Position numbers and translations under genes: made by a program. A stretch of DNA of 64,000 nt from Malacoraja senta (lineage: Eukaryota), in the NCBI GenBank assembly GCA_038087875.1, contig CM075996.1, forward strand, positions 2,668,001-2,732,000, given 5' to 3'. Of this stretch, positions 8,212 to 47,236 are shown piece by piece. Within the stretch, counting starts at the first letter, position 1. Every line of letters starts with the position of its first letter. Under the pieces are notes generated by a model. The model had not been told where the DNA came from, did not search any database, and saw only the letters and a program-made list of their open reading frames with translations.

Positions 8212-8339
8212 CTACAGAATGAAGCAGCGACTCCGGCCTTTCTTAGCTGGTTGCTGGATCACAGCTCGGATTGCAGCGTCGAAGATGTCCTTCAGCCCGA
8301 TGTCTTTACGAGCAGAACTTTCAACGTATTTAAAAGCGC
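8212..8339 (-). CDS. Divergent Rac-like GTPase coding exon 6 with CAAX
   Basis: Acceptor ttgttttttgtaccactgcag; encodes AFKYVESSARKDIGLKDIFDAAIRAVIQQPAKKGRSRCFIL*; 128 nt. Exon total 576 nt = 191 aa + stop, with no frameshift or premature stop. Confidence 0.92.
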
Positions 8340-10699: not shown

Positions 10700-10859
10700 C
10701 GATCTCCTTGGCTTTCTGCTCGCCCTCCTTGCAGCTGACGGGAGCCAAGTCGTTCTCCTTCAGCTTCTCAATGGTGTCCTTGTTGTCCCTCAGGTCCTTC
10801 TTGGTGCCCACCAGGATGATGGGACAGTTGGGGCAGTGATGCTTCACCTCGGAGGACCA
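10700..10859 (-). CDS. Divergent Rac-like GTPase coding exon 5
   Basis: Acceptor ttctccccgccacag; encodes [53 protein letters not shown](G); 160 nt; donor GTACGT. Confidence 0.93.
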
Positions 10860-11344
10860 CTGTGGCGGGGAGAAGTTCACAGGTTCACAGGAGCACAAAT
10901 AGGCCACTTGACCCATCCAATCTACCCCGCCATTCAATCATGGCTGATCTATCTCTCCCTCCCTCCCTCCCTCCCTCCCTCCCTCCCTCCCTCCCAACCC
11001 CGTTGTCATATGTTCGTGAATTCATAACATTTTCTGGCCATTTCATAATGAAACAAGAACATGTTCTTCAGATTCCAGAAGGAACCTGTCTCCTCCAGAT
11101 TCAGGGCATAGTTTCATCTCAGCTGTTATCGGTAGCGATGTTACAAAACCTACCTTCAGCGGCGCTGCGGTTCTGCCACTGGCCGCGTGCGCGACTTTGG
11201 CGCCATTGAGGGGGGGGGGATTAAAATGCCGTTTTCTCCTGCCCGTCGGAGTCGAACTTTCTCCGGCTGTTCAGCTGCTGCAGAAAAATCGCTCCGACTT
11301 CCGTTCTCGGAAGTTTAAAAAACCCAAAAACTATCATATGTGGC

Positions 11345-11697
11345 AACATAATTGTAGAAACTAATTGTTTCAGGACTGGGTGGGGGATGGTCAAGATTAT
11401 AAATAGTGATCTCCTTATTTCTTTTTATTTGTATTTTTATTCTCTTTTTCCTACTCTCTTTTCTTCAACTTTCTTCTTTCACTCTCTTTTTTTTCTTTTT
11501 CACACACTATATATCTCACTTTTTTCTATTCTTTATTATCTCATTTCTTTTTCTTATTTTTCTTTATTATAATTTTAAAAAAAGAAGATGTACATAAAAT
11601 GTATTATGCAAATATATATTAGGCGCTTGGGTGCCATATGACTGTACTCACTTCTAATAAAATAAAATATTTTTAAAAAAAAATAATAATAAAAAAT
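11345..11697 (+). mobile_element. L1-like 3' UTR/poly(A) fragment nested in an unclassified AT-rich repeat (about 11005-12441)
   Basis: Same architecture as 19180-19570 (G-rich patch, pyrimidine tract, acttctaataaa, A tail). Confidence 0.5.
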
Positions 11698-13097
11698 CAC
11701 GGGACAATTTAATCCCTGGAGTAAAATAAAAATCTACTTCTAACACCGTCAACGCCGATGACGGGACGGATCTCACGTATGGGACAAAAACATAATGTAA
11801 GTCGTTTATTTTACATATAAACTTGCTTCTTAGGATGACTTTAATCCAAATTTCATTGGCGAAAATGTGGTTTTGACCCCATACGAACCGGCAGTGTTTT
11901 TCCTGCCGATATGGGGTTCAAATTCACTGCAACCGCAACGTTCCAATCGATCGCGTTCCACAAAAAACCCACTCGCAAGATGATTAAAATGCCCATTAAT
12001 TTACGGGAATTAAACATTAAATTCCTTCCATTTGGCCTATAAATTCATGACAATGAGATTTAAAAATCATGTTATATTGTGAATTCTTGTGTGAATGTTA
12101 TTTGGACACTTAGGCTTTTTAAAAATGTTAACCTTTTCTTAAGAAATGGATAGATGTTTAGATCTAGTAATTGAATTTTGTAATTAGCTACAATTAGGTT
12201 AACTAATTATATGCTTTAATTTCAGGTCATCCAAGTAAGATTGTCTCATATTTGTTTCAGAATGCTTCAATCTATAATAATTGAAAATTTCATTCAGTTC
12301 TCTTAATTTTTAAGAAAGTTATGGGCTTTTGACTGTCCTCGATCACAGCTTTTGTGTTAAGTCAATGGAAAAGCAATAGGGAACAAGATGCTAATTTCAG
12401 AGTATGAAAATGGCCGTAACTTTTTTAATACTGAAGATATGAGGCAGAGAATTCCACAGACTCACAACTCTCTGTGTGAAAAAGTTTTTCCTCATCTCCG
12501 TTCTAAATGGCTTACCACTTATTCTTAAACTGTGGACCCTGTTTCTGGACTCCCCCAACATCGGGAACATGTCGAGACCCTTCTTCAGACTGAGAGTCAG
12601 GGGAAAGGGAAATGAAAGATATAGATGGTGAGGGCGGTTCTGAACTACTATCTATCTCATTTTAGCCCCTTAGACTATTTTTGATCAGACCTCACTGGAC
12701 TTTATCTTGCACTAAACATTATTCCCTTCATCATGTATCTGTACACTGTGGACGGCTCGATTGTAATCATGTATTGTCTTTCCGCTGACTGGTTAGCACG
12801 CAACAAAAGCTTTTCACTGTACCTCGGTACACGTGACAGTAAACTCAACTAAACTGAACCAGACTAAACTAAATGAAACTTTGGGTTGTGGGAGGAAACC
12901 GAGAGCCCCCGGAGGAAACCCACGCAGGTCACGGGAAGAACGTACAAACTCCGCACAGACAGCGTCCGTAGCCAGGATCGAACCCGGGGTCTCCGGTGCG
13001 GTGAGGCAGCAACTCTACCGCTGCGCCACCATGCCGCCCTGACATGTATATTCATAACTCGTGCTTCATTGGTAGGTAAAGTGTGAATTAATTAGAT

Positions 13098-13286
13098 CAG
13101 TGGTTCCCAACCTTTTATAGTTCATGGCCCCCTTGGGCTCTTTTATTTTTCTGTGCCCCCCCCCCCCTGACATTATTAGCGGAAAAAAAGTGGGCCCCCT
13201 TCATTGAACCTGTGGCCCCCTAAATCCCCAAATTTTTCTGTGGCCCCCCTGAAATTAACCATATGGCCCCAGGTTGGGAATCGCTG
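13098..13286. mobile_element. hAT (Charlie-like) MITE
   Basis: TIRs cagtggttcccaacc / ggttgggaatcgctg; 8-bp flanks aattagat / aattagaa (7/8 match). Confidence 0.8.
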
Positions 13287-13775
13287 AATTAGAACACTCA
13301 TTTACATAGATTTGTGTTCAGTTAATCCATTAAAATGTCCTCAACTTTGAATATGTTGCCTGAAAAAAATGTTGATATATATGCGGTGATATATGTTTGT
13401 ATTTGGCCCGGTGGAGCAGCGGTAGAGTTGCTGCCTCACAGCGCCAGAGACCCGGGTTCGATCCCGACTACGGGTGCTGTCTGTACGGAGTTTGTACGTT
13501 CTCCCCGTGACCTGCGTGGGTTTTCTCCGGGTGCCCCGGTTTCCTCCCACACTCCAAAGACGTACAGGTTTGTAGGTTAATTGGCTTCGGTACAAATGTA
13601 AAAATTGTCCCCCGTGTGTGCGGGATAGCGTTAGTGTGCGTGGGGATCGCTGGTCATCGGTGGGCTGAGGGGTTTAGACTAAACTAGATGTGCGTACTGA
13701 TAGCTTCAAGAAGAGCAGGGGGATGTATCTGATCAATCAAACATCTGAGCAAATTGGTGGGATCTCGGCTCTTAC

Positions 13776-13838
13776 CTTCAGCTGGACATTCATGAATGAG
13801 ACAGGGTTGACCAGGGAGAAACAGATGACAAATACATC
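13776..13838 (-). CDS. Divergent Rac-like GTPase coding exon 4
   Basis: Acceptor ccttttcctcttttccag; encodes DVFVICFSLVNPVSFMNVQLK; 63 nt; donor GTAAGA. Not visible in the supplied ORF track. Confidence 0.92.
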
Positions 13839-14371
13839 CTGGAAAAGAGGAAAAGGCAATGAAGACTCCAGTCATCCAGTGAGGAACCCAGAGTGAGACA
13901 GCACGGAAACAGGCCCTTCGGCCCAACTTGCCCACACCTGCCAACAATGTCCCAGCTACACTAGTCCCACCTGCCCGCGCTTGGTCCATATCCCTCCAAA
14001 CCTGTCCTATCCGTGTACCTGTCCAAATGTCTTTCAAACATTGCGATAGTCCCTGCCTCATCTACCTCCTCTGGCAGCTTGTTCCATACACCCACCACAG
14101 TCAGACAGGTACATGGATAGGACAGGTTTGGAAGGATATGGACCAAGGTGGGACTGGTGTAGATGGGACATGTTGGCCGGTGTGGGCAAGTTGGGCTGAA
14201 GGGCCTGTTTCTTTGCTGTATCACTCTATGACTGTATGAGGGGGGGGAGAAGGAGGGGGGGGAGGTGGGCGAGGGGGGAAAGGGGGGCGAGGGGGGCGAG
14301 GGGGGGAGAAGGAGGGGGGAGGGTTGTCGTGTGGGAGAATGGGGAGGAGATGGCTGTGCGGACATTCTTAC

Positions 14372-14489
14372 AGTCTGGGGGTAAGAGAGTGGCCGCAGCC
14401 GGTCGTAGTCCTCCTGTCCCGCCGTGTCCCACAGCCCGAGAGTGACCACCACATCATCGACCGTCACCGTGGTAGAGTAGTTGTCAAAG
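14372..14489 (-). CDS. Divergent Rac-like GTPase coding exon 3
   Basis: Acceptor ttctatccgcag; encodes [39 protein letters not shown]; 118 nt; donor GTAAGA. Confidence 0.93.
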
Positions 14490-14516
14490 CTGCGGATAGA
14501 ATGCAACGATCAGTCT

Positions 14517-14664
14517 CGCATGCGGTGAAACGTCACGCAACCGTCACACGCCAGTCCCGCATGCGGTGAAACGTCACGCAACCGTCACACGCCAGTCCCG
14601 CACGCGGTGAAACGTCACGCAACCGTCACACGCCAGTCCCGCACGCGGTGAAACGTCACGCAAC
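14517..14664. repeat. 41-bp tandem repeat, about 3.6 copies
   Basis: cgca(t/c)gcggtgaaacgtcacgcaaccgtcacacgccagtcc repeated. Confidence 0.9.
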
Positions 14665-16785
14665 TCTCAAACCGACACGAAGTGCTGGAGTAACTCAGCC
14701 GGTCAGAAAAGTGCAGGAAGGACCAGCGGACGCTGGTTTAATCCGAAGATAGACACAGGCAGCATCTCTAGAGAGAAGGAACGGGTGACGTTTCGGGTCG
14801 AGACCCTTCTTCAGTCTGATTTTGTGCCTGTCTTCGATTTAAACCAGCATCTGCAGTTCCTTCCTGCACGTGATTAGTGACACCCCTACTGTTGGACTTG
14901 ACTCTTAAACCCCTGAGGGAAAATTATTTCCAAAGATCCTTACTTGCAGGTGAATTGAGCCAGCGTTCAGAGTGGCTCTTTCCGCGCCGACCAGCGATCC
15001 CCGCACTCTAACGCTATCCTACACACACTAGGGACTATTTAAAAATTATACCAAGCCAATTAACCTACAAACCTGTACGTCTTTGGAGTGTGGGAGGAAA
15101 CCGGAGATCCCAGAGAAAACCCACGCAGGTCACGGGGAGAACGTGCAAACTCCGTACAGACAGCGCCCGTAGTCGGGATCAAACCCGGGTCTCCGGCGCT
15201 GTGAGGCAGCAACTCTGCCGCTGAGATGGGCCGAATAAATTTGACTATTTCTTGTCTCTCGCTCCCCACACTGTCTCTGTTAGTGACCGCATGCAAATCT
15301 CTCCCGCCACGCCCTGGTTTGTTCCACCACTTCCTGCCTCAAGTTCCCATGGCAACGACCAGGGGGGGGCGGAAATCCCCGGGGGGTACAGGGGGGACCC
15401 GTTTCCCCCCCCGCCACCTCCTGCATTGAGAGGTGGGGGACGATCCCCCCCCATTTTTTGTAATACGGACTTTATCTGCCTCTTTACATAGAAACATAGA
15501 AAATAGGTGCAGGAGGAGGCCATTCGGCCCTTCGAGCCAGCACCGCCATTCATTGTGATCATGGCTGATCATCCCCAATCAATAACCCGTGCCTGCCTTC
15601 TCCCCATATCCCTTGACTCCACTAGCCCCTAGAGCTCTATCTAACTCTCTCTTAAATCCATCCAGTGATTTGGCCTCCACTGCCCTCTGTGGCAGGGAAT
15701 TCCACAAATTCACAACTCTCTGGGTGAAAACGTTTTTTCTCACCTCAGTCTTAAATGACCTCCCCTTTATTCTAAGACTGTGGCCCCTGGTTCTGGACTC
15801 TTTCTAAAGGATGAATCGGCCCGTTCGCGGGGCCTTTCATCGCCCGGCGCGGCTTAAAATCAAACTGCTGCATCGAGGCGATCGAGGCTCCCGATGTTGA
15901 AGCCCCCGCCGGCCGATGAAAGACCCCGTGTACGGGCCGATTCAAGCCCCACGATTATGGGGCTGCCGAAGCTGCTGTTGCTGTTGCCCACGGCCGAAGC
16001 CTCGCGTGCGTGTGTGTGTGTGTGTCCCCTGCATGTTTTAATAATAATAATAATAATCATTTTATTTACTGGCGCCTTTCTAAAACCCAAGGACACCTTA
16101 CAATGCATAGAATCACAACAAAACAAAAAAAACACATAATCGGAATAAATTAAATTAAAAAAAAAAAAAAAAAAAAATTTAAATAATAATAATAATAAAT
16201 AAAAAATAAAAAATAAAAAAATTCCGTGCCTGGCGAGGTCAGAACTAAATTAAACTAAATTAAGTTGAATGATGAGTCGGCCCGGGTGCTGGACTGCACA
16301 CAAAGCCCAGCCGGCAGGCCAGCTGAGGAGTTTTGGCTCCCGTCCAACTCATGAACCGATGATCGGCCCATGAGAAGGAGGGGTGGTGGTGGTGGTGGTG
16401 GTGGTGTCGGCGGCAAGCGAAGGTCCGAAGGTCGGACAGCTGGGCCGGGCTGCCGACCGACCGACCGACGGGGCCACGGGCGAGGCGTTGCTGCTGCTGC
16501 TGCTGCTGCACTCCACGGGCTGCACTACGTCGGGACGGGTGAGGCGGGGGCCGGACACGACAGTCCCCTCGACCCGAGTAGTAGCGGTCAAATACGGGAC
16601 AAGGGCGGTCCCGTACGGGACAAACCAATTTAGCCCAATATACGGGATGTCCCGGCTAATACGGGACAGTTGGCGACCCAAATCCAGGATCAGCTTCCTC
16701 CCCACTGTTATCAGACAGGGCGGCAGAATGAAACATAACCGATACAAATCGCCGGCAAGGAGCTGACGGAGAAGTATATACTCAC

Positions 16786-16857
16786 ACGGTGGGAATGTAC
16801 TCCTCTGGGAAGGTGTGGGTGGTGTAGGTGATAAGGACAGAGGTCTTCCCAACGGCC
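16786..16857 (-). CDS. Divergent Rac-like GTPase coding exon 2
   Basis: Acceptor tctttctctcctcctgtag; encodes AVGKTSVLITYTTHTFPEEYIPT(V); 72 nt; donor GTGAGT. Confidence 0.93.
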
Positions 16858-19679: not shown

Positions 19680-19714
19680 CCATCACCCACCACCACACAC
19701 TTGATACTTTTCAT
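19680..19714 (-). CDS. Divergent Rac-like GTPase coding exon 1
   Basis: Minus strand ATG AAA AGT ATC AAG TGT GTG GTG GTG GGT GAT GG = MKSIKCVVVGD(G), 35 nt, donor GTGAGT. An in-frame ATG 6 nt upstream (19720, ggggATGg context) could add MV. Confidence 0.9.
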
Positions 19715-19935
19715 CACCATCCCCGCGCCGCGCGCTTGCGGTTCCCCCCTCTGTCAGACGTCGGTCTAAGTCGCGTTCCCCCTCTCTCCTCACTCGCTCC
19801 CCTCGACTCCGAACCCCGGCTCGACTCTGCTCCACCCGCGAGCTTGGAGATTCCCTGGATATCGGTCTCCACCTCCCCGATCCGTTCTCAGCGGAAGGAA
19901 TACTGATTCGCTCGACCAACGTCCCCAACGGCCAC
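19715..19935 (-). promoter_or_regulatory. CpG-rich 5' UTR/promoter of the divergent Rac-like gene
   Basis: GC/CpG-rich non-repetitive sequence immediately upstream of exon 1; ETS-like CAGGAAGT nearby at about 20012. Confidence 0.45.
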
Positions 19936-21601
19936 GTAGGAAAATCAGATTACAGCTGATTTAACTACCAAATAATGGCTTTCAACATTAATGTGGGCTG
20001 TTTGGATGCACCAGGAAGTAGATGAGCCGGAGAGACTTTCAGCACAGAAAGAGGCCCTTCAGCCCATCAGGTTCGTGCTGACCATCAGGTCCCCTTCTAT
20101 ACTATCCCCTTTTAACCACCTGCTAGAAAGGGGAGAGGGGCAAGGTTTAAGGGGGAAAGGTTTTACCCAGTGGGTGCCAAGTGCCGGGGGTAGAGTTGCT
20201 GCCTCACAGCGCCACAGACCCGGGTTCGATCCTGACTGCGGGTGCTGTCTGTACGGAGTTTGCACGTTCTCCCGAGTGGGTTTTCTCTGGGTGCTCTGGT
20301 TTCCCCCCACACTACAAAGGCGGATAGGTTTGCATTCGTTTCGGGAGGGTTAGAATATACCAGCAGAGCTGTAATGCTGAGGCTTTGTAGGCCCTAGTGA
20401 GGCAACACTACAAAGGAATATTGTGAGCAGATTTGGTCCCCAGGAAGGATGTGTTTGCTGGCTCTGGAGAGGGTTTAAGAGGAGGTTTACCAGAATGATC
20501 CCAGGAATGAGTGGGTTAACCTATGACGAGCGTTTGACGGCACTGGGCCTGTACTCGCTGGAGTTTAGAAGGATGAGGGGGCACCTCATTGAAACTTACC
20601 GAACAGGGAGAATGAGACTAAGGATTTGAAGATAATGATAGTAGCAGGAGAAACAGAATTAAGGCAATTATATGAGGAGGGAATAACTACAGGAGGGAAG
20701 GGAGCCAACACCTAAGTTAATTGGTAAACATTAAAGTTTAGAAAGAAAGGAGAGAGAGGATGTGGAGAGGATGTTTCCACTAGTGGGAGAGTCTAGGACC
20801 AGAGGTCACAGCCTCAGAATTAAAGGACGTATTTTTAGAAAGGAGATGAGGAGGAATTTCTTGAGCCAGAGGATGGAATTCATTGCCACAGAGGGCTGTG
20901 GAGGCCAAGTCAGTGGGTATTTTTAAAGCGGAGATTGACAGATTCTTGATTAGTACGGGTGTCGGGGGTTACGGGGAGAAGGCAGGAGAATGGGGTTGAG
21001 AGGGAGAGATAGATCAGCCATGATTGAATGGCGGAGTAGACTTGATGGGCCGAATGGCCTAATTCCGCTCGTAAAAACAATGAACATGAACTATTCACTG
21101 TGAGGGGAACGGAGGCAGCTTTTTATTTAAATGTTGCTGTCACACACAAACTAATTCTGCTCCAATGATTGATGAATGATTGAACATTGATCGTTTTTTT
21201 GCAGTTTTGCTGGCCTGAGATTTGAGAGTTGGCTGGGATTTGAACACTTGGTCTTTAGATCGAGGCAAGTGCGATCTTTATTGTACCAGGCGTGAAAGTT
21301 TGACAACATTCAAAGTTGTTCTGTGACTTTCTTTTCGAGTTTATTCAAATAGGCATTCTGGCCACTTTCCTGATTTGGTAGTTAAATCAGCTGTGAACTA
21401 ATTTCCCTACATCCAGGGCGGTCACAGTGACGCAGCGTTAGAGTCGCTGCCTTACAGCACCAGAGACATGGGTTCGATTCCGACCGCCGGCGCTGTCTGC
21501 ATGGAGTTTGCACGTTCTCCCCGTGACCCGCGTGGGTGTCGTGTTTGATCATTCACCGGATTCAGACAATGGAGTTTGATTCATTCAATAATTTATTACA
21601 C

Positions 21602-22391
21602 CACACACTTGTGTCTCCCCTTACACACTTGTGTCTCCCCTTACACACTCACGTCTCCCCTTACACACTCACATCTCCCCTTACACACTCACGTCTCCCC
21701 TTACACACTCACGTCTCCCCTTACACACTCACGTCTCCCCTTACACACTCACGCCTCCCCTTACACCCTCTCGTCTCCCCTTACACACTCACGTCTCCCC
21801 TTACACACTCGCATCTCCCCCTTATACACTCGCGTCTCCCCTTACACACTCACGTCTCCCCTTACACACTCACGTCGTCCCTTACACACCCACATCTCCC
21901 CTTACACACTCACGTCTCCCCTTACACACTCACGTCTCCCCTTACACACTCGCATCTCCCCTTGCACACTTGTGTCTCCCCTTACACACTCACGTCTCCC
22001 CTTACACACTCGTGTCTCCCCTTACACACTCGTGTCTCCCCTTACACACTCACGTCTCCCCATACACACTCATGTCACCCCTTACACACCCGTATCTCCC
22101 CGTACACACTCGCGCCTCCCCTTACACACTCGCATCTCCCCTTACACACTCGCGTCTCCCCTTACACACATTCATGTCACCCTTACACATTCGCATCTCC
22201 CCTTGCACACTTGTGTCTCCCCTTACACACTCGTGTCTCCCCTTACACAATCGTGTCTCCCTTACACATTCGCATCTCCCCTTGCACACTTGTGTCTCCC
22301 CTTACACACTTGTGTCTCCCCTTACACACTTGTGTCTCCCCTTACACACTCGTGCCTCCCCTTACACACTCGCGTCTCCTCTTACACACTC
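21602..22391. repeat. 20-bp minisatellite (ttacacactcacgtctcccc)n
   Basis: About 39 tandem copies between the two Rac first exons. Confidence 0.96.
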
Positions 22392-25277
22392 CGGCTCAGA
22401 GAATGGGCAGGCTTGGACTGAGAGTTGCAAGGCAGACAGATCCTCCCTCAGTCTTCACCTGAGCTGGTCTGTAGTGAAGGAGGTGATTTAATTTGTCTGT
22501 CTCCCCTCTCCCAGTCCACGCCTCCTCAATCTCACAGCGCCCAAGCTCATTATTTGTGTTGATAGCTTAGTGTAGTTTAGTTTAGTTTACAGAAGCCAAT
22601 TAGCCTACAAACCTGCACGTCTTTGGAGTGCGGGAGGAAACCGGAGCACCCGGAGAAAACCCACGCGGGTCACGGGGAGAACGTGCAAACTCCGTGCAGA
22701 CAGCGCCCGCGGTCGGGATCGAACCCGTGTCTCCGGCGCCGTGAGGCAGCAACTCTACCGCTGCGTCACCTTTAATCTGTCCATCTCGCCCACCCCCAGG
22801 GACTCTGCCAACCTTGCCCGCCCCAGGGGGGGGCTCTGCCCTCTCTTACTAGCCCTTACCCCCCCCCCCCGGGTTGGCATGTCTACCCCAAAGCCCGCCA
22901 TCTGTCTCCCCCCCCAAAAAAAACAAGGAGAAGTGGGCTGCGGCGCCCTCTAGGGGGAAACAAACGACAGGCAGTGACTGAAGTCGCTCCAAAAACACAT
23001 TGATTGTGTTGGAAGGAACTGCAGGCGCTGGTTTACACCGAAGATAGACACAATGTGCTGGAGTAACTCAGCGGGACAGGCAGCGTCTCTGGAGAGAAGG
23101 AACGGGTGACGTTTCGGGTCGAGACCCTCCTTCAGACTGAGAGCCAGGGGAGGGGGGGACACTAGAGATATGGAAGGGCGAGGTGTGAACAGGACATAGA
23201 GCTGGAGAGCAGGTGGGAATCAGAGAGTGGGGGGGCGGCGAGATCGGCTCGAGACCCTTCCCGAAACGTCGCCCAGAGATGCTGCCTGTCCCGCTGAGTT
23301 ACTCCAGCTTTTTGTGTGTGTCTCCGCTTCCTTCCCGCACACAAAGGGTCAGGACCCCTCCCTCAGATTGCAAAGTTGTGCACAAGATCCTGGAGAACGC
23401 GAGGATACAAAGTTTAACCTCAACTGGGGGCGGCACGGTGACGCAGCGGTAGAGTTTCTGCCTCACGGCGCCGGAGACACGGGTTCGATCCTGACTGCGG
23501 GTGCTGTCTGTACGGAGTTTGTCCGCTCTCCCCGTGGGTTTTCTCCGGGATCTTCGGTTTCCTCCCACACCCCAAAGACGTGCGGGTTTGTAGGTTAATT
23601 GTCTTGGTATAAATGTAAAAATTGTCCCTAGTGTGTGTAGGATAGTGTTAGCGTGCGGGGATCGCTGGTCGGCACGGACCCGATGGGCCGAAGGGCCTGT
23701 TTCCGCGCTGTATCAGTAAACTAAACTAAACTCCATCCCCTTTGATGTCTCATTTTCACACCTTACACTTCCTTATCTCTGTGTCTCCCTCTCCCCTGAC
23801 TCTCAGACTGAAGAACCGTCTCGACCCAAAACGTCACCCATTCCTTCTCTCCAGAGATGCTGCCTGTCCCGCTGAGTTACTCCAGCGTTTTGCGTCTGTC
23901 TTCGATGTAAACCAGCGTCTGCAGTTCCTTCCTGCACATAATGTGACTCCTCACCTTGTCTACGATGCATAATGAGGTTCTATAACGAGTGCCTGATGAG
24001 TCAACCCTAGCAGGGTGTGAATTACTATTGTCTGTCACGCACACAGTATGAGCAGAAGCTTATCCAGAGGTTACAACATGAATCATGCTAGATTTCCGCT
24101 CTATCTAAACCACTTGCTGATATAATCATTCCTCAGAAATTAATTCACTTGCTAATACATGTGTAGGATGGAACTGCAGATGCTGGTTTACACCGAGGAT
24201 AGATACAAAATGCTGGAGTAACTCAGCGGGACAGGCAGCATCTCTGGAGAGAAGGGATGGGTGACGTTTTGTGTCGAGACCCTTCTTCAGACTGAGAGTC
24301 AGGTGAGAGGGAGACATAGAGATAAGGAAGGGTAAGGTGTGAAAACAAGACATCAAAAGAGATGGAGTTTAGTTTAGTTTGCTGATACAGCACAGAAACA
24401 GGCCCTTCGGCCCATCGAGCCCGCGCCGACCAGCGGGTCAGGGGGCATAAGTTCATAGGTTCTAGGAGCATGATTAGGCTATTCACCACATCGAGTCTAC
24501 TCCGCCATTCAATCACGGCCGATCTATCTCTCCCTCTCAACCCCATTCTCCTGCCTTCTCCCCATAACCCCTGACACCCGCACTAATCAAGAATCTGTCT
24601 ATCACTGCCTTAAAAATATCCATTGACTCAGCCTCCACAGCCTTCTGTGACCATGGTCTTGCATGGAGAAACAAGGAACTGTAGATGCTGGTTTACAAAA
24701 AAAGATACGGGGTGCTGGAGTAACTCAGCGGGTCAGGCAGCATCTCTGGAGAACATGGAGAGGTGGCGTTTTGGGTCAAGATTCCTTCTTCAGTGTCCTT
24801 ATCTCCAGAGATGCTGCCTGACCCGCTGAGTTACTCCAACACTCTGTGAAACGTCACCTATCCATGTTCTCCACAGATGCTGCCTGACCCGCTGAGTTAC
24901 TCCAACACTCCGTGTCTTCTGTAGTTAAACCGTTTTTAGTAGTTACTGGATCAAGTGCCTGACCCATTGGGTCTGCTCCCCCAACGCACCCTTTCCCGAC
25001 CCATAGCCCCCACGGGAGTCGTGGTCCTCATAGAGGATGAAATCTTCAGTGAAGCTGCTCACTGCTAGCCGAGCCATCGTGACGTCATCGGTTGAAGCTG
25101 GTCGTTTTAAATTCAATGTCTTTTGACTTCTAATCAGTAATGAGTCGAGAATAAGTCGAGGAATAAAGCATAAAATGTTCAGTGAAGATGGTCTCTGCCT
25201 CGAGGGGAAAAATGTCAATCAGAATATGTAAAAATGTAATCGTTACTGCTTAGTGTTTTAGCGAAGATGTACAGACA

Positions 25278-25897
25278 ACCACATATACACTCACATATAC
25301 ATATATACACACACACACACACATACACATATACACATATACACACACATATACACACACACATACATACACACATGTACACACACATATACACATACAC
25401 ATACACATATACACACATATACACACACATATACACACACATATACACACACACATATACACATATACACACACATATACACACACACATACACACACAT
25501 ATACACACACACATATACACACACATATACACATATACACACACATATACACACATATACACACACATATACACACACATATACACATATACACACACAT
25601 ATACACACATATACACACACATATACACACACATATACACATATACACACACATATACACACACACATACACACACATATACACACTCACATAAACACAC
25701 ACATACACGCACACATATACACTCACACATATACACACACATATGCACACACATATGCACACACATATACACACACATATACACACACACATACACACAC
25801 ACATACACACACATATACACACACATATACACACGCATATACACACACATATACACTCACATATACACACACATATATAAACAAACATATACACACG
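25278..25897. repeat. (CA/TA)-type compound microsatellite
   Basis: catatacacaca-type units over about 620 bp. Confidence 0.96.
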
Positions 25898-27421
25898 TAC
25901 AAGATCAGACTTTTAATAAGTGTATGATGATATGATAGCATGTAAACAGGCCCTTTGGCCCACCAAGTCCGCGCCGACCAGAGATCACTACCACTATCCT
26001 AGACACACTAGTGGCAATTTAGAATTTTACCAAACCAATTCACGTCTTTGGAGTGTGGGTGGAATCCGGAAAACGCAGGTTATGGGGAGAACGTACAAAC
26101 TCCGTACAGACAGCACCCGTGGTCAGGGTCGAACCCGGGCCTCTGGCGCTGTGAGGCAGCAACAGGCAGCTGTGCCACCGTGCCGGCCTTTCATATTAGT
26201 GCTTTTTCTTAAAGGTGCTATAGAAATGAACATCCTGTTGTTGTGGGTAGACAAAAAATGCTGGAGAAACTCATCCATGGGATGCTGCGTCACCCGTTGA
26301 GTTTCTCCAGCATTTTTGTCTACCTTCGAATTTTTCCAGCATCTGCAGTTCCTTCACAAAACACCTTGTTGTTGCTGTGTGTGGGAAGGAACTGCGGACG
26401 CTGCTTTAGACCGAAGACAGACACAAAAAGCCAGAGCAACTCAGGCAGGCAGCATCTCTGGAGAGAAGGAATGGGTGACGTTTCGGGCCGAGGCCCTTGT
26501 TCAGACTGAGCCTGCTGTTGTTCAGACTCTTCGAATGCCCATTCGCCACTTCCTGCAGAGGTTTTGCGGCCTTTCAGACTAGTTTGGGAGGAAAAACACT
26601 CCTCATCTCAGCCCCGACCAACTCAAATTTGGAACATGTATACGAGGTGGTAGTTTAGAAGGTTCGGCTGGTGAGGGTCAGTGTAGGATTGAGTTCTGTA
26701 CATTGATCCACCAGTTGCATTGAATCCATTGCATTTCCTGCGCGTTTGGTTGCGGTAATGCAAAAACAAACCTCCTGACACCAACGTTTCCCCAGCGCTG
26801 TACATTTCCTGTGGTTGACACTAAGAAGAACTTAGATGCGGCCCAGAAAAAAAAAGACGTCTAGAGCAGTTCTTGTGCAGGAAGGAACTGCAGGTGCCGG
26901 TTTAAACCGGGGGATAGACTCAAAATGCCGGAGTAACTCAGCGGGACGGGCAGCATCTCCGGAGAGGAGGAATGGGCGACGTTTCGGGTCGGGATCCATC
27001 TTCAGACTGAGAGTCAGGGGAGATGGGAGGCACGGAGTTAAGGAAGGGCAAGGTGTGAAAACGGCAGATCAAAGCAGGCGAAGTTCCAGGAATCTGTAGC
27101 AGGGTTGATTGTTGGCTGAGGGGAAGGTGACAAGGGGGCTAGCAAACAGTAACATTCATCAGCAGGACAGTGAAACTGGTCGTAGGGGGCCATGGTGGGG
27201 GGGGAGGGACGGAGAGAGAGGGGAAGCAGAGGGTCCTGGAAGTTAGAGCATATTTCATACCGCCAGGTAGGCTGGCTCGAAGGGCCGAATGGCCATACTC
27301 CTGCACCTATTGTCTATCGTCTATCATAGTGGAGGTTTAGTTTTCAAGAGAGAGTTGGATTTAGCTCTTAGGGATAACGGAATCAAGGGATGTGGGGAAA
27401 AAGCAGGAACGGGGTACTGAT

Positions 27422-27766
27422 TGTAACCCGGCCGACTTGGGGTTTACTGAACATCCCGCGGTCCAGGCATAAGCTCAGGGGCGACCGCGCCTTTGCGGTT
27501 GCAGCTCCTAGACTGTGGAACAGCATCCCCCTTCCCATCAGAACTGCCCCCTCCATCGACTCTTTTAAGTCGAGACTTAAAACCCATCTCTACTCCCAAG
27601 CCTTTCTTGACGTCCTCTGAATGAGGGCTGTATGTATGTAGTGTGTTTGTATTTAATCTATGAACCACTGTTGTATAACGTTAGTATCTCCACCAATGTA
27701 ATACACTTTGGTCAACGAGAGTTGTTTTTTATATGTGCTGTAGAAATAAAAGTGACTTGACTTGAT
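27422..27766 (+). mobile_element. L2-type LINE 3' fragment (second copy about 41887-42125 -)
   Basis: IPRSRHKLRGDRAFAVAAPRLWNSIPLPIRTAPSIDSFKSRLKTHLYSQAF, then AATAAA and a (ttgac)n tail. Confidence 0.85.
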
Positions 27767-28204
27767 TTGATTGTGGATGAACAGCCATGATCATATCGAA
27801 TGGCGGTGTTGGCTCGAAGGGCCGAATGCTTATTTTTCTGGATCTGGATCTGGATGTAATACGCTGAAAAGCTCTAGGTAGATCACCACTCAGCACTATG
27901 ATGGGGGTGGACGTCCTAGTCTAGATGGAGATGCTTTTTAGGAGATGCATCTTTGTATGTGTTGCTGTTTTTGGAGATCTCTGATGCTGGCTGGTAGGGT
28001 ATTCCGATCCCTTGCTGGCTTGAAGAAAAAAACGAGTGAGAAAGTGCCGGTGCAGAATGAAATAATTTCCAGGCTGGTCGCTTCTGGTTGACATGCCTAC
28101 GGGCGCTTGGGTTAACTCGACGTGGGCCTCCATCTTTAAATCAATAGTGGTATTCTTGATCTAGTGGAATGTGGATGAACTTGCGATGAGTAGTAGGTGG
28201 ATCA

Positions 28205-28775
28205 AGATTCAAGAGTCAAGTGAGTTTATTGTCATGTGTCCCTGATAGGACAATGAAATTCTTGCTTTGCTTCAGCACAACAGAACATAGTAGGCATTGA
28301 CTACAAAACAGATCAGTGTGTCCATATACCATTATATAAATATATACACACATGAATAAATAAACTGATACAGTGCAAATAACAGATAATGGGCTATTAA
28401 TGTGCAGAGTTTTGTCCGAGCCAAGTTTAATAGCCTGATGGCTGTGGGGAAGTAGCTATTCCTGAACCTGGTCGTTGCAGTCTTCAGGCTCCTGTACCTT
28501 CTACCTGAAGGTAGCGGGGAGATGAGTGTGTGGCCAGGATGGTGTGGGTCCTTGATGATGCTGCCAGCCTTTTTGAGGCAGCGACTGCGGTAGATCCCCT
28601 CGATGGAAGGGAGGTCAGAGCCGATGATGGACTGGGCAGTGTTTACTGCTTTTTGCAGTCTTTTCCCGCTCCTGGGCGCTCAAGTTGCCGAACCAAGCCA
28701 CGATGCAACCGGTCAGCATGCACGACTCTACTGCGCACCTGTAGAAGTTCGAGAGAGTCCTCCTCGACATACCGA
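28205..28775 (-). mobile_element. Rex1/Babar-type LINE 3' fragment, second subfamily
   Basis: Minus strand encodes RSRCLKKAGSIIKDPHHPGHTLISPLPSGRRYRSLKTATTRFRNSYFPTAIRLLN. Confidence 0.75.
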
Positions 28776-29159
28776 CTCTCCGTCGGTGGTGTCGGATGAA
28801 GTTTAAGGTCCTTTATCGTGCTGGAGAGAGTGAGCTCTGCCACTATGTTTCTACGGTGCAGCAATAAGCAAGTCAGTAAGTAAGTTTATTGGCCAAGTAT
28901 TCACATACAAGGAATTTGCCTTGGTGCTCCGCCCACAAGTAACAACATGGCATACAGTGACAGATACGAATGACTCAGAAAACACTAAACATTAATAATA
29001 ATAAAACATTAATGATAAATCACCATCGATCAAGAATGTGAACCAGCAAAATACCAGATCAAAGGGAGGCTACAGATTTTTGGCTGTGGAGTAGAGCAAC
29101 TACTCGTGGATAAAAACTGTGTTTAATGGTCCACCCATTGAAATAAACAGTCCAATTGT

Positions 29160-29476
29160 TGATGAGTGGGCGGGAGGAAGGGCTAGGAGACAGGCAAGCA
29201 TGCTGGTCGTGATTGACTCCAGTTTGAACCAACCTGGTTGGAGATGTGTAGCCAAGAGGCCAATGCTGGTGGAGGCAAACTATCAAAGTTAGTTGGCCTG
29301 CAGCGCTGTTTGGGTGGTACCGGCTGAGAGCAACTTGCTTGGGATCTGTCTAATTTGCAGTCTCTCTCCCTCTCTACTCCTCTCATCCCCTTCCCGAGCT
29401 TTTAATTTTTTTTTTCTCTCCCCCCCCTCTTCGACTGAGACAGCCACCCGCAGACTTTGAAACCTCATCTGAAGAA
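29160..29476 (+). promoter_or_regulatory. Putative proximal promoter/5' UTR of the RAC2-like gene
   Basis: Non-repetitive stretch upstream of the ATG with GGGCGG directly followed by GAGGAAG (Sp- and ETS/PU.1-like motifs, about 29168-29180). Motif match only. Confidence 0.35.
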
Positions 29477-29511
29477 ATGCAGGCAATTAAATGTGTGGTG
29501 GTGGGGGATGG
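29477..29511 (+). CDS. RAC2: Rac GTPase (RAC2-like) coding exon 1
   Basis: ATG CAG GCA ATT AAA TGT GTG GTG GTG GGG GAT GG = MQAIKCVVVGD(G), 35 nt, followed by donor GTAAGT; canonical vertebrate Rac exon 1 size. Confidence 0.9.
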
Positions 29512-32500
29512 GTAAGTTGACTTCAAAATTTCTTTAAAAGTTTGTTTTAAAAAAAAGTTGGTAAAAAGTTTTCTCCCCCCCCCCCCCCTCCCCTGTGTTC
29601 TTGTTACTTAATCTTGAGGGGCAGTGGAAATTGGGGTGTCAATTCTTCTGACAAAAGAGATTTAAATTTGTATTTGTTTTGTCATGTTATATGTGTTGGA
29701 AGATGATCTTAAGAAAAATAATATCATCCTCTTCTGTTTCCCCTTTTCTCAGCAATTTCTGCTTGCGGTTACTCGATGACATTTACCCTCTCTTGTTACA
29801 AAAAAGAAAAATTCCCACTGTGTTTTTTAATGGGCTGGAAACAATTTCAAATTCTTTGTGTCTGAGTCCCCCCCTCTCTCTCTCCCTCTCCCTCTCTCTC
29901 TGTGTCTCTTTTTCCACATCTGTCTCTCTGGAGCGTATGTATTCATGCTCCTCATCTGTTTTTAATGACCGGATTAGACAGCGGATTAAAATACCCTGGC
30001 ACCGTTTGTCAGTTTAGAAATACTTGAGCAATTTTTTTTTCCCTTCTCTTTGGTGTTACAATAACGAAACTACAAGTGCGATTCGAAACGAGGTCACAGC
30101 CTCAGAATTAAAGGACGTTCTTTTAGGAAGGAGATGAGGAGGAATTTCTTTAGCCAGAGGGCGGTGAATCTGTGGAATTCTTTGCCACAGAAGGCTGTGG
30201 AGGCCAAGTCGGTGGATATTTTTAAGGCTGAGATAGATAGATTCTTGATTAGTATGGGTGTCAGGGGTTATGGGGAGAAGGGGGTTAGGAGAGAGAGAGA
30301 GATAGATCGGCCATCATTGAATGGCGGAGTAGACTTCATGGGCCGAATGGCCTAATTCTGCTCCTATCATCTTATAATTGCCTTATGCAGGTAATGCTTC
30401 TTACAGAGAGTGTTGGAGTGTTGGACTATCGGCTTCTGACAGAGAATGATATAAGGATCTAATACTACTGAAGGTAGACACAAAATGCTGGAGTAACTCA
30501 GCGGGATAGGCGGCATCTCTTGGGGGAGAAGGAATGGGTGACGTTTCGGGACGAGACCCGACCCGAAACGTCACCCGTTCCTTCTCTCCAGGGATGCTGC
30601 CCGTCCCACTGAGTTACTCCAGCATTTTGTGTGTCTATCTCCGGTTTGAACCGGCATTGGCAGTTCCTTCTTGCGTGTTTCGTCTGAAACTTCTGACGTA
30701 CTTGAGAATTGCAACACCCACCGACCCACACTCTTGGCTTCCAGAAAGTGAACTATCTTTTTCTGACATCCAACAAGTTTGGTTTTAAAAGCATGTGGTC
30801 GCAATATTTAAAAATCGCCTTCCCGTTTAGATTCTATGGACCTCGAGAAGGAGCGGGCGGGATCTGGTGGACATTTTAAAGAACCTATAACCTATAGACT
30901 ATAGGCGGATGTTAGGGTGAAAAGATTTTTGCACTTGACCAGAAGGAGTTGATTTGGATGGGTGTAAAAACCGAAAATCAATTTCTTCTTCACCTCCCCA
31001 CCCCCTCCTTCCTCATTTCCTGCCCCTTCGCCCAAGTCAATAGACAATAGACAATAGGTGCAGGAGTAGGCCATTTGGCCCTTCGAGCCCAGCACCACCA
31101 TTCAATGTGATCATGGCTGATCATCCCCAATCAGTACCCCGTTCCTCCCTTCTCCCCATATCCCCTGACTCCGCTATTTTTAAGAGCCCTATCTAGCTCT
31201 CTCTTGAAAGCATCCAGAGAACCTGCCTCCACCGCCCTCTGAGGCAGAGAATTCCACAGACTCACCACCCTCTGTGAGAAAAAGTGTTTCCTCGTCTCCG
31301 TTCTAAATGGCTTACTCCTTATTCTTAAAGTCCTCCCCCTCTCCCTCAAGTTCCTGTATCTCGCCCCCCCCCCCCATTCTGAGTGGTGTCCTTGAGTAGT
31401 ATTTAATTTCCTCTTATCCCCCAAGGATTCAGTTTAGTTTATTGTCACGTGTACCGAGGTACAGTGAAAAGCTTTTGTGCGTGCTAACCAGTCAGCGGGA
31501 AGACAATACATGATTACAATCGAGCCATTTACAGTGTACAGATACATGATAAGGAAATAATGTTTAGTGCAAGGTAAAGCAAGTAAAGTCTGATCAAGGA
31601 TAGCCCGAAGGTCACCAATGAGGTAGATAGTAGTTCAGGACTGCTCTCTGGTTGTGGTGGGATGGTTCAGTTGCCTGATAACAGCTGGGAAGGAACTGTC
31701 CCTGAATCTGCAGGTGTGTGTTAGTTTTCAAAACTTCTGTACCTCTTGCCCGATAGGAGAGGGGAGAAGAGGGAGTGGCCGGGGTGCGACTGGTCCTTGA
31801 TTATGCTGCTGGCCTTGCCGAGGCAGCGTGAGGTGTAGATGGAGTCAGTGGAAGGGAGGTTGGTTTGTGTGTGATGGTCTGGGCTGCGTCCACAATTCGC
31901 TGCGATTTCTTGCCCTCCCTTCCCCTTCCTTTATCTTCCCCTTCCCCCCATTCCCTCCCCCACAACCCCCCCCTCAAGTTCCTTACCACCCCCTCCCCAT
32001 TCTCAGTGCTGTCCCTGCGTAATATTTAATTTCCTCCCTCCCACCAACCCCCCTCCATCAAAATCCATTTCTCTCCTTGCACTTTATGGGGCCTTGGTGT
32101 GCGTAACTTTGCCCCTCTGATGTAACTTGCCCTGTCCCCCAAGGCTGTGGATGGGGAAAGATGTGGGCAAATGGGGCTAGAATGGATGGGGCATCTCAGT
32201 CTAGATGCGTTGGGCCGAATGGCCTGTTTCCATGCTCCATGACTCTGCGACTGTTCGAATCCTGAAGTGGTGAAATGCAAAATTATTATTATTTTTTTCT
32301 TTAATGTTTAATAGGTCTGTGTTAGCTGAACTAGGATGGTTTGTAACAAGATGGGACTTCTCCCCATCTGAGCTACTCCTCCCTGTGGACAGTGTATTGA
32401 GCAATGTTTAGGAATTGGATAGGGTGTTGGGTGATACGTGACCAACCATGAAGTTGTACAGCATGGAAACAGGCCCTTCGGCCCACCTTGTCCATTCTGG

Positions 32501-33181
32501 GCTAGCCCCATTTGGCCCATTGGACGAGAGGGGATCTTATTGAAACATGTGAGATTGTTAAGGGTTTGGTCACGCTAGAGGCAGGAAACATGTTCCCGAT
32601 GTTGGGGGAGTCCAGAACCAGGGGCCACACAATTTAAGAATAAGGAGTAAGCCATTTAGTATGGAGACGAGGAAACACTTTTTCTCACAGAGAGTTGTGA
32701 GTCTGTGGAATTCTCTGCGTCAGTGGAGGCCGGTTCTCTGGATACTTTCAAGAGAGAGCTAGATAGAGCTCTTAAAGATAGCGGAGTCAAGGGATATGGG
32801 GAGAAGGCAGGAACGGGGTACTGATTGGGGATGATCAGCCATGATCACATTGAATGGCGGTGCTGGCTCGAAGGGCCGAATGGCCTACTCCTGCACCTAT
32901 TGTCTATTGTGTATTGTGTATTGTGTATTGACTCTAAACCTTTCCCGTCCCTATTTCTGTCCAGATGTCTTTTACAAGTCATAACACCACCTTCAAAACG
33001 CTGAAGAAGGGTCCCACCCTGAAACAGCACCTATCCATGTTCTCCAAAGATGCCGCCTGGCCCGCTGAGTTACTCCAGCACACTGTGACTTTTTTTCTTT
33101 TTTTGCAAACCAGCATCTGCAGTTCCTGGTTCCCTCCAGAAGAAACTTGTTGTCAAGAGTGAGAGAGGGTGGAGGGGCAGT

Positions 33182-33716
33182 AGATACATAGATACATAGA
33201 AAATAGGTGCAGGAGTAGGCCATTCGGCCCTTCGAGCCTGCACCGCCATTCAATATGATCATGGCTGATCATCCAACTCAGTATCCCGTACCTGCCTTTC
33301 TCCATACCCCCTGATCCCTTTAGCCACAAGGGCCACATCTAACTCCCTCTTAAATATAGCCAATGAACTGGCCTCAACTACCCTCTGTGGCCGAGAGTTC
33401 CAGAGATTCACCACTCTCTGTGTGAAAAAGTTTTTCCTCATCTCGGTCTTAAAGGATTTCCCCCTTATCCTTAAGCTGTGACCCCTTGTCCCTGGACTTC
33501 CCCAACATCGGGAACAATCTTCCTGCATCTAGCCTGTCCAACCCCTTAAGAATTTTGTACGTTTCTATAAGATCCCCCCTCAATCTCCTAAATTCTAGCG
33601 AGTACAAGCCAAGTCTATCCAGTCTTTCTTCATATGAAAGTCCTGACATCCCAGGAATCAGTCTGGTGAACCTTCTCTGCACTCCCTCTATGGCTATAAT
33701 GTCCTTCCTCAGATTT
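33182..33716 (-). mobile_element. CR1-type LINE 3' fragment (same subfamily as 9272-9812)
   Basis: Near-identical reverse-complement copy with the same tail. Confidence 0.9.
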
Positions 33717-36700
33717 GCACTCCCTCTATGGCTATAATGTCCTTCCTAGACAAACTAGGAGCGCTGAGGATTCTGTGTGGTCATTCTGTGATCCTGGATG
33801 GGGTCACAGAATGACTACACATCTTTTCTGGAAGACAGACACATAAATGCTGTAGTAAAGGGCGTGTTCTTCAGTTCTTCAAAACTCCAAGTTCAGTCTG
33901 GTGGTGGAAGCAGACACAATAGTGGGATTTAAGAGGCGTTTGGATAGGCACACGGAGAGGCAGGGAACGGGAGGCATCTGGATCACATGCAGGCAGAGGA
34001 GAACAATTCATCTTGGCGTCATGTTCAGCACAGGCAATGTGGGCCGAAGGGCCTGTTTCTGTGCTGTACTGTTCTATGTGTAGGAAGGAACTGCAGATGC
34101 CTGGTTTACAACGAAGACAGACACAAAATGCTGGAGTAACTCAGCGGGGACGGCCAGGCAGCATCTCCGGAGAGAAGGAACGGGTGACGTTTGGGGTCGA
34201 GACCCTTCTTCAGACTGAGAGTCAGGGGAGAGGGAGACACAGAGATAGAGATGGTGATAATAGACAATAGACAATAGACAATAGACAATAGGTGCAGGAG
34301 TAGGCCCTTTGACCCTTCGAGCCAGCACCGCCATTCAATGTGATCATGGCTGTTCATCCCAATCAGTACCCCGTTCCTGCCTTCTCCCCATATCCCCTGA
34401 CTCCGCTATTTTTAAGAGCCCTATCCAGCTCTCTCTTGAAAGCATCCAGAGAACCTGCCTCCACCGCCCTCTGAGGCAGAGAATTCCACAGACTCACCAC
34501 TCTCTGTGAGAAAAAGTGTTTCCTCGTCTCCGTTCTAAATGGCTTACTCCGTATTCTTAAACCGTGTGTGGCCCCTGGTTCTGGACTCCCCCAACATCGG
34601 GAACATGTTTCCTGCCTCTAGCGTGTCCAAGCCCTTAACAATCTTTATATGTTTCAATGAGATTCCCTCTCATCCTTCTAAACTCCAGAGTGTACAAGGC
34701 CCAGCGTCTCCATTCTCTCAGCGTATGACAGTCCCGCCATCCCGGGAGTTTTACACTGTGGAGTGGTAGAACAAATGAATGAAAGATATCCAGAAAAGAA
34801 AAGATGATAAAGGAAACAGGCCCATTGTTAGCCGAGAACGAGTTACAGACCCGAAACGTCACCCGTTCCTTCTCTCCGGAGGTGCCTCCTGTCCCGCTGA
34901 ATTACTCCAGCACTTTGCCTCTATCTTGGGTGTAAACCAGCATCTGCAGTTCCTTCCTACGCATATGATCTCTGAAGAAGGGCGTGTTCTGATCTGAACG
35001 CAGTCGAAGGCAGGAAGTAGAAAATATTCAGCCTCATCCCCCCAATGATTAGATTTCCTTTGACACAATATTTCGCTTACAACCCGAATATTGACTTGTC
35101 TAACTTCAAGTAACTCTTGTCTCTCTCTCCATCCCCTCCCCCACCCGACTAGTTTCACCATCCTCCTGATTCATTTTACTGTGTCAACTTCCCCTCTGCC
35201 CACAATGAGCCATTCTACATTGCCTTGTACATCGTCTGCTTTGATCTGTCCTTTTCACACCTTGCCCCTCCATATCTCCAGTTTTCCCTTTCCCCTGACT
35301 CTCAGTCTGAAGATGGGTCTCGACCCGAAACGTCTCTCCAGAAATGCTGCCCGTCCCGCGCTGAGTTACTCCTGCATTTTGGTGTAAACCAGCATCTGCA
35401 GTTCCTTCCTACACAGGCTCGTTGAATTGGGGTGAGATGGTTGTAGCGTTGAGGGCGTGAGCTCCATCAGCCTCTAAACCCCAGTAGATAAGCAGACAGC
35501 TTGCCAGGAAGCTCACACTTCCGCCGAGACTAGGTACTGAGCTGCTTGCTGCCCCATGCATGCACACTTCTGCTTAATCCCTGCAGAAAACAAGCACTCG
35601 TTGCCTTTTCAGTTTTAAAAAAAAAAAAGCACCTTTCATCAACCCGAGAATGTCCCAAAGTACTTTTTTTTCCCATTTCAGTTCAGTTCAGTTTAGTTCA
35701 GAGATTCAGCGCAGAAACAGTCCCTTCTGCCCACCGAGTCCGCGCCGACCAGCGATCCCACACCGTCCCACACACACTGGGGACAATTTACAATTTTATA
35801 CCGAAGCCAATTTACCCACAAACCTGCACGTCTTTGCAGTGTGGGCGGAAACCGGGGCACCCGGAGAAAACCCACGCGGGTCACATGGAGAAGGTACAAA
35901 CTCCGTACAGACAGTACCAGTGGTCAGGATGGAACCCGGGTCTCTGGCGCTGTGAGGCAGCAACTCTACCCGCTGCGCCACCGTGACGCCCGATAATTCT
36001 CGGTGGTCCCCTTTGTGTTCACCATCGGGACCCAGTATTGTCCCTCTGTTGTCTTTTATCCTGTTGTGTAATGATAAACAGTACAGAAGCTCCAGCCTAG
36101 ATACCAACTTGAACAGACATCCCCATTTCCCTCATTTCACAACATATCTTTCGTTATATAAAATGCCCCAGCTTGTATAACAAACCACTGTGGTTTATAT
36201 GTATTGCCAATAAGCCGTTTGGCACAACTTGTCAGTTCCACACATGACCTGTCTATCGTTCAGTTTAATTTATTGTCACGTGTAACGAGGTACAGTGAAA
36301 AGCTTTTTTGTCGCGTGCTAACCAGTCAGCGGAAAGACAATGCAGGTTTAAGAAAGAACTGCAGATGCTGGAAAAATCGAAGGTAGACAAAAATGCTGGA
36401 GGAACTCAGCGGGCGAGGCAGCATCTATGGAGCGAAGGAAATAGGCGACGTTTTGGGGTCGAGACCCTTCTTCAGACTTAGAGTCACGGGGAAAGTGGAA
36501 CGTGAGATATAGACGGGACTTAAGAGGAATGAATGGAGGATACGCAGAAAGCAATGATGGTCAAGGAAATGTGTAGCACGCATTGGAACGGTGGCGCAGC
36601 GGTGAAGTCGCTGCCTCACGGCGCCAGAGACCCGGGTTCGATCCTGACTACGGGTGCTGTCTGTACGGAGTTTGTACCTTCTCCCACGTGGTTTTCTCCG

Positions 36701-37400
36701 AGATCTTCGGTTTCTTCCCACACTCCAAAGGCATGCAGGTTTGTAAGTTAATTGGCTTGGTATAGGTGTAAATTGTCCCAATAGTGTGTGTAGGATAGTG
36801 TTAGTGTGCGGGATCCGCTGGTCGGCACGGACTCGGTGGGCCGAAGGGCCTGTTTCCGTGCTGTATCTCTAAACTAAACTAATTGGCCATTGTCGGCCGT
36901 GGGATAGGGGATAACGAGTATACAGACAGAGGAACTCAACAGGACAACAGTAAAACTGGTATAGAAGTTGGGATGTATAAAATCATGAGAGGAATAGATC
37001 GGGTAGACTCACACAGTCTCTTGCCCAGGAGTAGGGGAATCGAGGACCAGAGGACACGGGTTTAAGGTGAAGGGGGAAAAGATTTAATCGGAATCTGAGG
37101 GGTAACATTTTCACACAGAGGGTGGTGGGTGTATGGAACGAGCTGCCAGAGGAGGTAGTTGAGGCAGGGACTATCCCAACGTTTAAGAAACAGTTAGTCA
37201 GGTACATGGATAGGATACGTTTGAAGTGATATGGACCAAACGCCGGCTGGTGGGACTGGTGTAGCTGGGACACGTTGGCCGGTGTGGGCAAGTTGGGCTG
37301 AAGGGCCTGTTTCCACGCTGTGGCTTAATTCCTTGTGTAGACAAAAATGCTGGAGAAACTCAGCGGGCGAGGCAGCATCTATGCAGCGAAGGAAATAGGT

Positions 37401-46315: not shown

Positions 46316-46333
46316 CACAGCCACTGTTTGTAA

Positions 46334-46444
<111 letters not shown>

Positions 46445-46984: not shown

Positions 46985-47236
<252 letters not shown>

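Follow-up and report, generated by a model that had tools for sequence, protein, structure and literature searches.

A six-frame motif scan of the 64-kb window, the whole 64,000-nucleotide stretch of Malacoraja senta DNA analysed here, revealed two genes for Rac GTPases that diverge head-to-head. Gene A (29477..54415, plus strand) encodes a canonical Rac of 192 residues in exons 29477-29511, 46372-46443, 47056-47173, 49019-49081, 50461-50620, and 54285-54415. Gene B, the subject of this study, lies on the minus strand (19714-8212) and encodes a divergent Rac of 191 residues over six coding exons. An intergenic region (19715..29476) separates the divergent starts, with 9,763 bases from ATG to ATG. 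In both genes the introns have GT-AG borders and the reading frame is free of stops. Exons 1-5 (35, 72, 118, 63, and 160 nt) equal those of gene A in length and phase, whereas the last exon has 128 nt compared with 131. Genome searches found gene B as a single copy in the assembly, and contigs of one public run, which may be the assembly's own source, agree with exons 2 and 5 letter for letter. A pseudogene or an assembly artefact was ruled out by the intact frame, the canonical splice sites, and the existence of orthologs. The original prediction, made from the letters alone, had placed the gene at 10700..16857. This span holds exons 2-5, but exons 1 and 6 lie outside it, so that the substitutions C157S to R163I, the loss of C178, and the CaaX motif had been missed, and C18S, L117K, and the changes in alpha3 had been overlooked too.

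Gene B and gene A are identical in 128 of 192 aligned columns and differ in the remaining 64. Exon 1 (19680..19714, 35 nt) is preceded by an in-frame ATG at 19720 on the same strand, two codons before the gene B start, and the database models for two skates begin at this upstream ATG (P0001; P0142, 193 residues). Exon 2 (16786..16857, 72 nt) covers the end of the P-loop, helix alpha1, and the start of switch I, and carries C18S, S22T, N26H, A27T, and G30E in Rac numbering. In exon 3 (14372..14489, 118 nt) the beta2-beta3 region is altered by A42T, N43T, M45T, G48D, K49V, P50V, and N52T, and switch II is as in gene A. Exon 4 (13776..13838, 63 nt) contributes L79V, S86N, and A88V together with E91M, R94Q, and A95L in alpha3, where Y98S and P99S are also found; L117K is a further change. 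Exon 5 (10700..10859, 160 nt) retains the G4 motif, with an altered insert helix and an altered stretch 137-146. Exon 6 (8212..8339, 128 nt) carries C157S, L160R, T161K, Q162D, and R163I, lacks C178 through deletion of one residue, and ends in a basic tail, the CaaX motif CFIL, and the stop. Motifs G1-G4 and the Rho insert helix are all present, and the orthologs described below match the Pfam family PF00071. The residue inventory of the original prediction was borne out: G12, F28, Y32, T35, W56, A59, Q61, and switch II are unchanged, residues 53-78 being identical throughout to gene A, and S22T, N26H, A27T, G30E, the rewritten stretch 42-52 with M45T, K132N, and K133D are all read on the minus strand. 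The predicted change of 137-146 holds apart from G142, which is kept, and position 146, where it is gene A that departs from Rac1.

Orthologs were collected by a search with gene B exon 5, an ortholog-profile search of which the best 120 of 6047 matches were used, and cluster look-ups. After removal of eight isoform or partial duplicates, 22 sequences including gene B were available, the 21 other species being seven batoids, 13 sharks, and the chimaera Callorhinchus. Their database labels read only "Rac1-like" or "Rac1". The closest orthologs come from two rajid skates, with two and three differences in 165 residues. A single new state is found in all 22 sequences at five positions (T22, E30, T45, V79, and S157). 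Neither A27, replaced by T in four, E in four, D in 13, and L in one, nor G30 is kept in any of them; C178 is absent from all, and both L160 and T161 are replaced in 21. Kept in all 22 are K16, T17, F28, Y32, residues 35-41, W56, D57, A59, Q61, Y64, T115, K116, D118, and A159. The tail holds three to five basic residues and ends in Cys-x-x-Leu in 21 sequences and in -Met in the chimaera. In comparison, all of 139 canonical Racs have S22, G30, C157, L160, and T161, and 138 of them have A27; the 139 were selected from 153 by coverage and by at least 78% identity to gene A, a filter that favours conservation. Other changes are confined to skates: N26H and N52T occur in four of the 22 sequences, C18S in three skates, and K132N in this genome only. 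Within switch II, R66K was noted in 11 of the 13 sharks. Neutral variation of the named sites among orthologs had been held to speak against the original prediction. K132N and N26H, with their narrow distribution, lend that prediction no support; S22T, G30E, C157S, and the loss of A27, all present in 22 of 22, argue against purely neutral variation.

The residues through which Rac docks to p67phox are S22, T25, N26, F28, G30, E31, A159, L160, and Q162, as given in PMC8387964, which cites Lapouge 2000 and structure 1E96. Addition of A27 from PMC8353492 gave a face of ten residues, which was compared with a background of 127 positions, buried residues included, that are at least 90% conserved in the 139 canonical Racs. 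The tests were post hoc on sites that are not independent, and in these terms gene B changes six of the ten face residues against 22 of the 117 other conserved positions (Fisher p=0.008). Replacements shared by the whole clade fall on four of ten face residues and nine of 117 others (p=0.010), or on three of nine and ten of 118 when A27 is left out (p=0.049). Nine sites set all four skates apart from the other orthologs, and four of these lie in the face (26, 27, 160, and 162; p=0.0008). Gene A keeps the whole face. Since both the clade-wide and the skate-only changes fall on it, the oxidase-face patch was altered in the chondrichthyan stem and then again in skates: at the protein level the key sites are fixed, yet the same patch underwent a second burst of change. 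A structure prediction for the Amblyraja ortholog, built from 19 sequences, was uninformative for the face, with a mean predicted local distance difference test score of 68.8 and values below 50 for residues 16-41.

In a tree holding 17 of the 22 sequences, the gene B-type proteins form one clade (support 100/96), in which the chimaera branches off first and the skates fall within the batoids. The chimaera and shark lineages split about 400 million years ago, and the duplication that produced gene B would have occurred at or before the chimaera-elasmobranch split. The free tree places the clade outside Rac1-3 on a long branch, and grouping it with Rac1, Rac2, or Rac3 gave p values in the approximately unbiased test of 0.49, 0.52, and 0.67, so that none was rejected. 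Among 182 proteins scanned, at least two of five diagnostic residues were found in chondrichthyan proteins only, and none of 112 further proteins had two of four. These results suggest that a gene B-type Rac is absent from bony vertebrates, a statement kept at that strength because it refers to the best 120 of 6047 matches. One shark species has, besides its gene B ortholog, separate Rac1-type and Rac3-type proteins (P0130, P0147, and P0042), and the skate has a Rac1, gene A, and gene B, which marks gene B as an extra gene.

Synteny, diagnostic residues, and trees were considered for the identity of the neighbour. Within 100 kb on either side, exons match PLA2G6, GGA1 (ahead of GGA3), a galectin, a TMEM184-family gene, and a BAIAP2-family SH3 domain, all of which are neighbours of RAC2 on human 22q13. 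Gene A shares S107 and A135 with Rac2 and clusters with it, at weak support (86/81, and 77 in a second tree). Taken together, this indicates that gene A is probably Rac2. Canonical Racs are 93-96% identical to it. A search with its last exon returned a single chondrichthyan ortholog, from the electric ray Narcine (P0185, NCBI name "Rac1-like"). The acceptor of that exon (54273-54284) is purine-rich rather than pyrimidine-rich; the exon nonetheless matches the electric-ray protein. Among the ortholog matches listed, Narcine has no gene B ortholog, through either loss or missed annotation. Position and exon structure favour the view that gene B is likely an inverted local duplicate beside Rac2. 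N107 is found in 20 of the 22 gene B-type sequences and S107 in gene A and most Rac2 sampled, a one-site hint that the clade may predate crown jawed vertebrates. A 31-base stretch covering codons 122-132 is identical in both paralogs (10753-10783 in gene B, 50537-50567 in gene A) and is possibly a short gene-conversion tract, with a marginal permutation p of ~0.05. Residue 124 is D in the gene B-type proteins of skates, as in gene A, and E in most orthologs.

The possibility that gene B is a misplaced Rac1, Rac3, or RhoG was rejected on the available evidence, as Rac1 lies on contig C5, RhoG on contig C7, and a Rac3-type protein occurs beside the paralog in the shark. The Rac1-type gene (C5, 61580001-61660000) adjoins a lipase-class-3 gene and is near a Sec7 gene; only its last two exons were found. 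Rac3 was not found in searches of the skate assembly. Both observations probably reflect assembly gaps, the assembly or the search being incomplete. Searches for Fringe and Sec7 genes found no copy on contig C20, and these counts are lower bounds. Skate RhoG is a single open frame of 192 residues. Two single-frame RhoA/RhoB-like genes about 30 kb apart on the unplaced contig C1100 (L012:1195-1713 and L013:1195-1713) have unusual and mutually different switch I regions and are perhaps another lineage-specific Rho duplicate. Around the Rac pair, a galectin gene lies 0-20 kb left of the window, tail-to-tail with gene B, and to the right of gene A cytochrome P450-like exons were seen by eye, where Pfam and the PDB matched nothing. 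Downstream of gene B, two long tandem arrays (~760-3180 and ~5800-7450) have units of ~30-35 and ~25 bases as judged by eye, and the second (5800-7450) is broken by a retroelement-like piece. No description of the gene B class was found in the full-text literature searched, and subscription papers on Rho evolution or their supplements could mention it; gene B is apparently an ancient Rac variant that has not been described as a class, though its members are predicted in databases.

The altered positions were compared with mutants reported in the literature. According to PMC8353492, Rac with A27K or G30S fails to bind the NOX2 complex, and preactivation does not restore the binding; C18S and C157S Rac are redox-inert and yield minimal superoxide. 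The original prediction had named A27 and G30 as determinants of p67phox binding; the abolished NOX2 binding agrees with this, but the same two residues also set CYRI-B selectivity, with further hydrogen bonds from N26, S41, and N52 (PMC7955166). Without A27 and G30, gene B lacks the residues that characterise the canonical oxidase-activating Rac1 and Rac2. Some of the support first offered for uncoupling from the oxidase failed. K132E slows NOX2 activation only ~1.5-fold and leaves the final activity unchanged (PMC8353492), which contradicts a strong role for a charge change at K132, and N26H and M45T could not be confirmed as classic oxidase-impaired Rac1 mutants in the literature searched; in Cdc42, M45T hardly alters binding to PAK, ACK, or WASP (PMC8412110). 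Other support was gained, as L160, Q162, C157, and C18 are changed as well, and uncoupling of gene B from the oxidase is predicted as likely.

From the anatomy and the conservation observed, we infer every binding step of the following mechanism. Gene B would be geranylgeranylated and cycle normally between GDP and GTP on membranes, but would not bind p67phox and would not feed forward into superoxide production. Lacking the C157/C18 redox trigger and C178, which is a palmitoylation site (PMC12581661), it would be redox-insensitive and would not be palmitoylated. CYRI binding would probably be weaker and WAVE activation uncertain. Output would pass through partners that read residues 32-41 and switch II, with CRIB kinases of the PAK type as the favoured guess, and the freed patch of alpha1, switch I, and beta6-alpha5 would have been remodelled a second time in skates. 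Position 27 of Rac is presumably a DOCK determinant, and it is uncertain whether gene B would still bind guanine nucleotide exchange factors (GEFs). Cdc42 position 30 contacts DOCK9 (PMC8412110). The whole reading, that gene B is an intact Rac-family GTPase predicted to cycle on membranes, to have lost docking to p67phox, and to send Rac-type signals without superoxide, is held with about even confidence.

Several observations weigh against this reading. Four face residues (T25, F28, E31, and A159) are unchanged throughout the 22 sequences, 18 of which also have N26 and Q162, and the chimaera retains L160. The natural residues T/D/E/L27 and E30 differ from the laboratory substitutions A27K and G30S, and the redox-inert result for C18S and C157S rests on one paper. 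Skate p67phox was not located: a PB1 search gave two matches, Par6-like by eye, and searches of the ARPC5 flank and with EST1 gave nothing. As to actin, the A-site of WAVE is positively charged, reaches G30 through the backbone only, and relies on T24, E31, I33, F37, D38, N39, S41, and N52 (PMC9481577). All these contacts are kept in gene B except N52, which is changed in skates, and a loss of actin output therefore cannot be claimed. The ratio of nonsynonymous to synonymous divergence (dN/dS) between gene A and gene B, ~0.15 by a crude Nei-Gojobori estimate, speaks for the reading, but dS, at 1.35, is near saturation. Positions 27 and 160 take four and six states among the orthologs, a pattern equally compatible with relaxed constraint and with a new partner.

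Relaxed constraint leads to the question whether gene B is a subfunctionalised duplicate, restricted to a narrow tissue where no oxidase is required, in which unused surfaces drift and no new signalling role has arisen. Apart from the many states at 27 and 160, this explanation draws on 63 variable sites out of 165 and on a far faster rate, gene B showing 28-33 differences in 165 residues to four non-rajid-like batoid orthologs against none in 165 for gene A and its electric-ray ortholog, although the species pairs differ. The five positions with one new state in all 22 sequences do not fit drift, nor do eleven shark proteins from ten species within one 90% cluster, and we regard it as unlikely. 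A dampener built into the locus would be co-expressed with gene A and would use its intact switch II to absorb GEFs, GTPase-activating proteins, or RhoGDI while giving little output. The head-to-head layout, the identity of residues 53-78, and the retention of W56 would suit it; however, 9.8 kb lies between the start codons, a dominant-negative signature of the T17N kind is lacking, and Y98 and R66, which with D65 lie near RhoGDI (PMC8622166), are variable among orthologs. A dampener is accordingly given little credence. Nor does much weight attach to the idea that gene B still activates an oxidase by way of a p67phox or NOXA1 paralog that co-evolved with it in chondrichthyans. Changes clustered on one face would be expected of a matched new partner, and the four invariant face residues would be consistent with one, but since gene A keeps the whole face the main p67phox should stay canonical, and such a paralog was not found in the skate searches, which missed p67phox itself too.

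The original prediction also proposed a pathogen-related role, with gene B as a decoy for Rho-modifying bacterial enzymes, to which may be added a back-up Rac that they recognise poorly. The target residues Y32, T35, and Q61 are indeed kept, but any working Rho-family switch requires them. Residues 22-27 presumably influence toxin recognition, and the twofold alteration of one surface patch is the only hint of conflict; the key changes are fixed rather than diversifying, and the gene is single-copy. A decoy is modified by the effector, triggers a guard, and has no anti-pathogen function of its own, according to PMC11781737, in which toxin-activated Rac2 is sensed through PAK in mammals. Gene B adjoins the probable Rac2, but a guard domain or guard partner was not seen, and with no specific support for a decoy the role appears very improbable. 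A broader conjecture joins several of these elements. Cartilaginous fishes would have kept a fourth jawed-vertebrate Rac that bony vertebrates lost, and Rac signalling would be divided into two branches. The patch at 22-30 and 157-163 would have been adapted to a new partner and, with pathogens as the driving force, once more in skates. The resulting Rac would be insensitive to redox, blind to the oxidase, and able, next to the phagocyte Rac2, either to sense or to evade bacterial enzymes that target Rho proteins. Taken as a whole, it is speculative and improbable.

The reading of gene B as a membrane-cycling Rac without p67phox docking gains its interest from the family to which it belongs. 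Few proteins of vertebrates are as conserved as Rac1-3, and positions 22, 27, 30, 157, and 160 are practically invariant in the Racs sampled from animals, fungi, and protists. Gene B would be an additional member in the history of vertebrate Rho proteins. If it is uncoupled from the oxidase, it would be a natural Rac in which several separation-of-function changes have been combined since chimaeras and sharks diverged, a ready-made tool to separate superoxide from the PAK and actin outputs.

Gene B resembles vertebrate Rac1, Rac2, and Rac3 in its six exons, motifs G1-G4, switch II, W56, insert helix, and basic tail with CaaX. Its best match among solved structures is Rac1 (E 2e-87), ahead of RhoG (3e-74) and Cdc42 (3e-73), and over residues 13-177 its orthologs share 70-79% identity with canonical Racs. 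Unlike Rac1-3, it replaces A27, G30, S22, M45, C157, L160, T161, and C178 and belongs to a long-branched clade of its own. Like RhoG it is a divergent member of the Rac subfamily, and skate RhoG likewise lacks G30 and has T45; RhoG is, however, a single-exon gene on a separate branch that keeps A27, C157, and L160. Cdc42 offers a functional analogy, since it too departs from Rac at 27 and 30. These two residues prevent Cdc42 from binding CYRI-B (PMC7955166), and their Cdc42-like substitutions, A27K and G30S, are those that cost Rac its NOX2 binding (PMC8353492). Gene B, however, has S41 and W56 as in Rac, and the residues at 27 and 30 are acidic in most species rather than K and S. The laboratory Rac mutants A27K, G30S, C18S, C157S, and C178S touch the same positions that are naturally changed in gene B, and the substitution itself is identical for C157S and, in three skates, for C18S. 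In contrast to these mutants, gene B combines all the changes in one natural protein, with other residues at 27 and 30.

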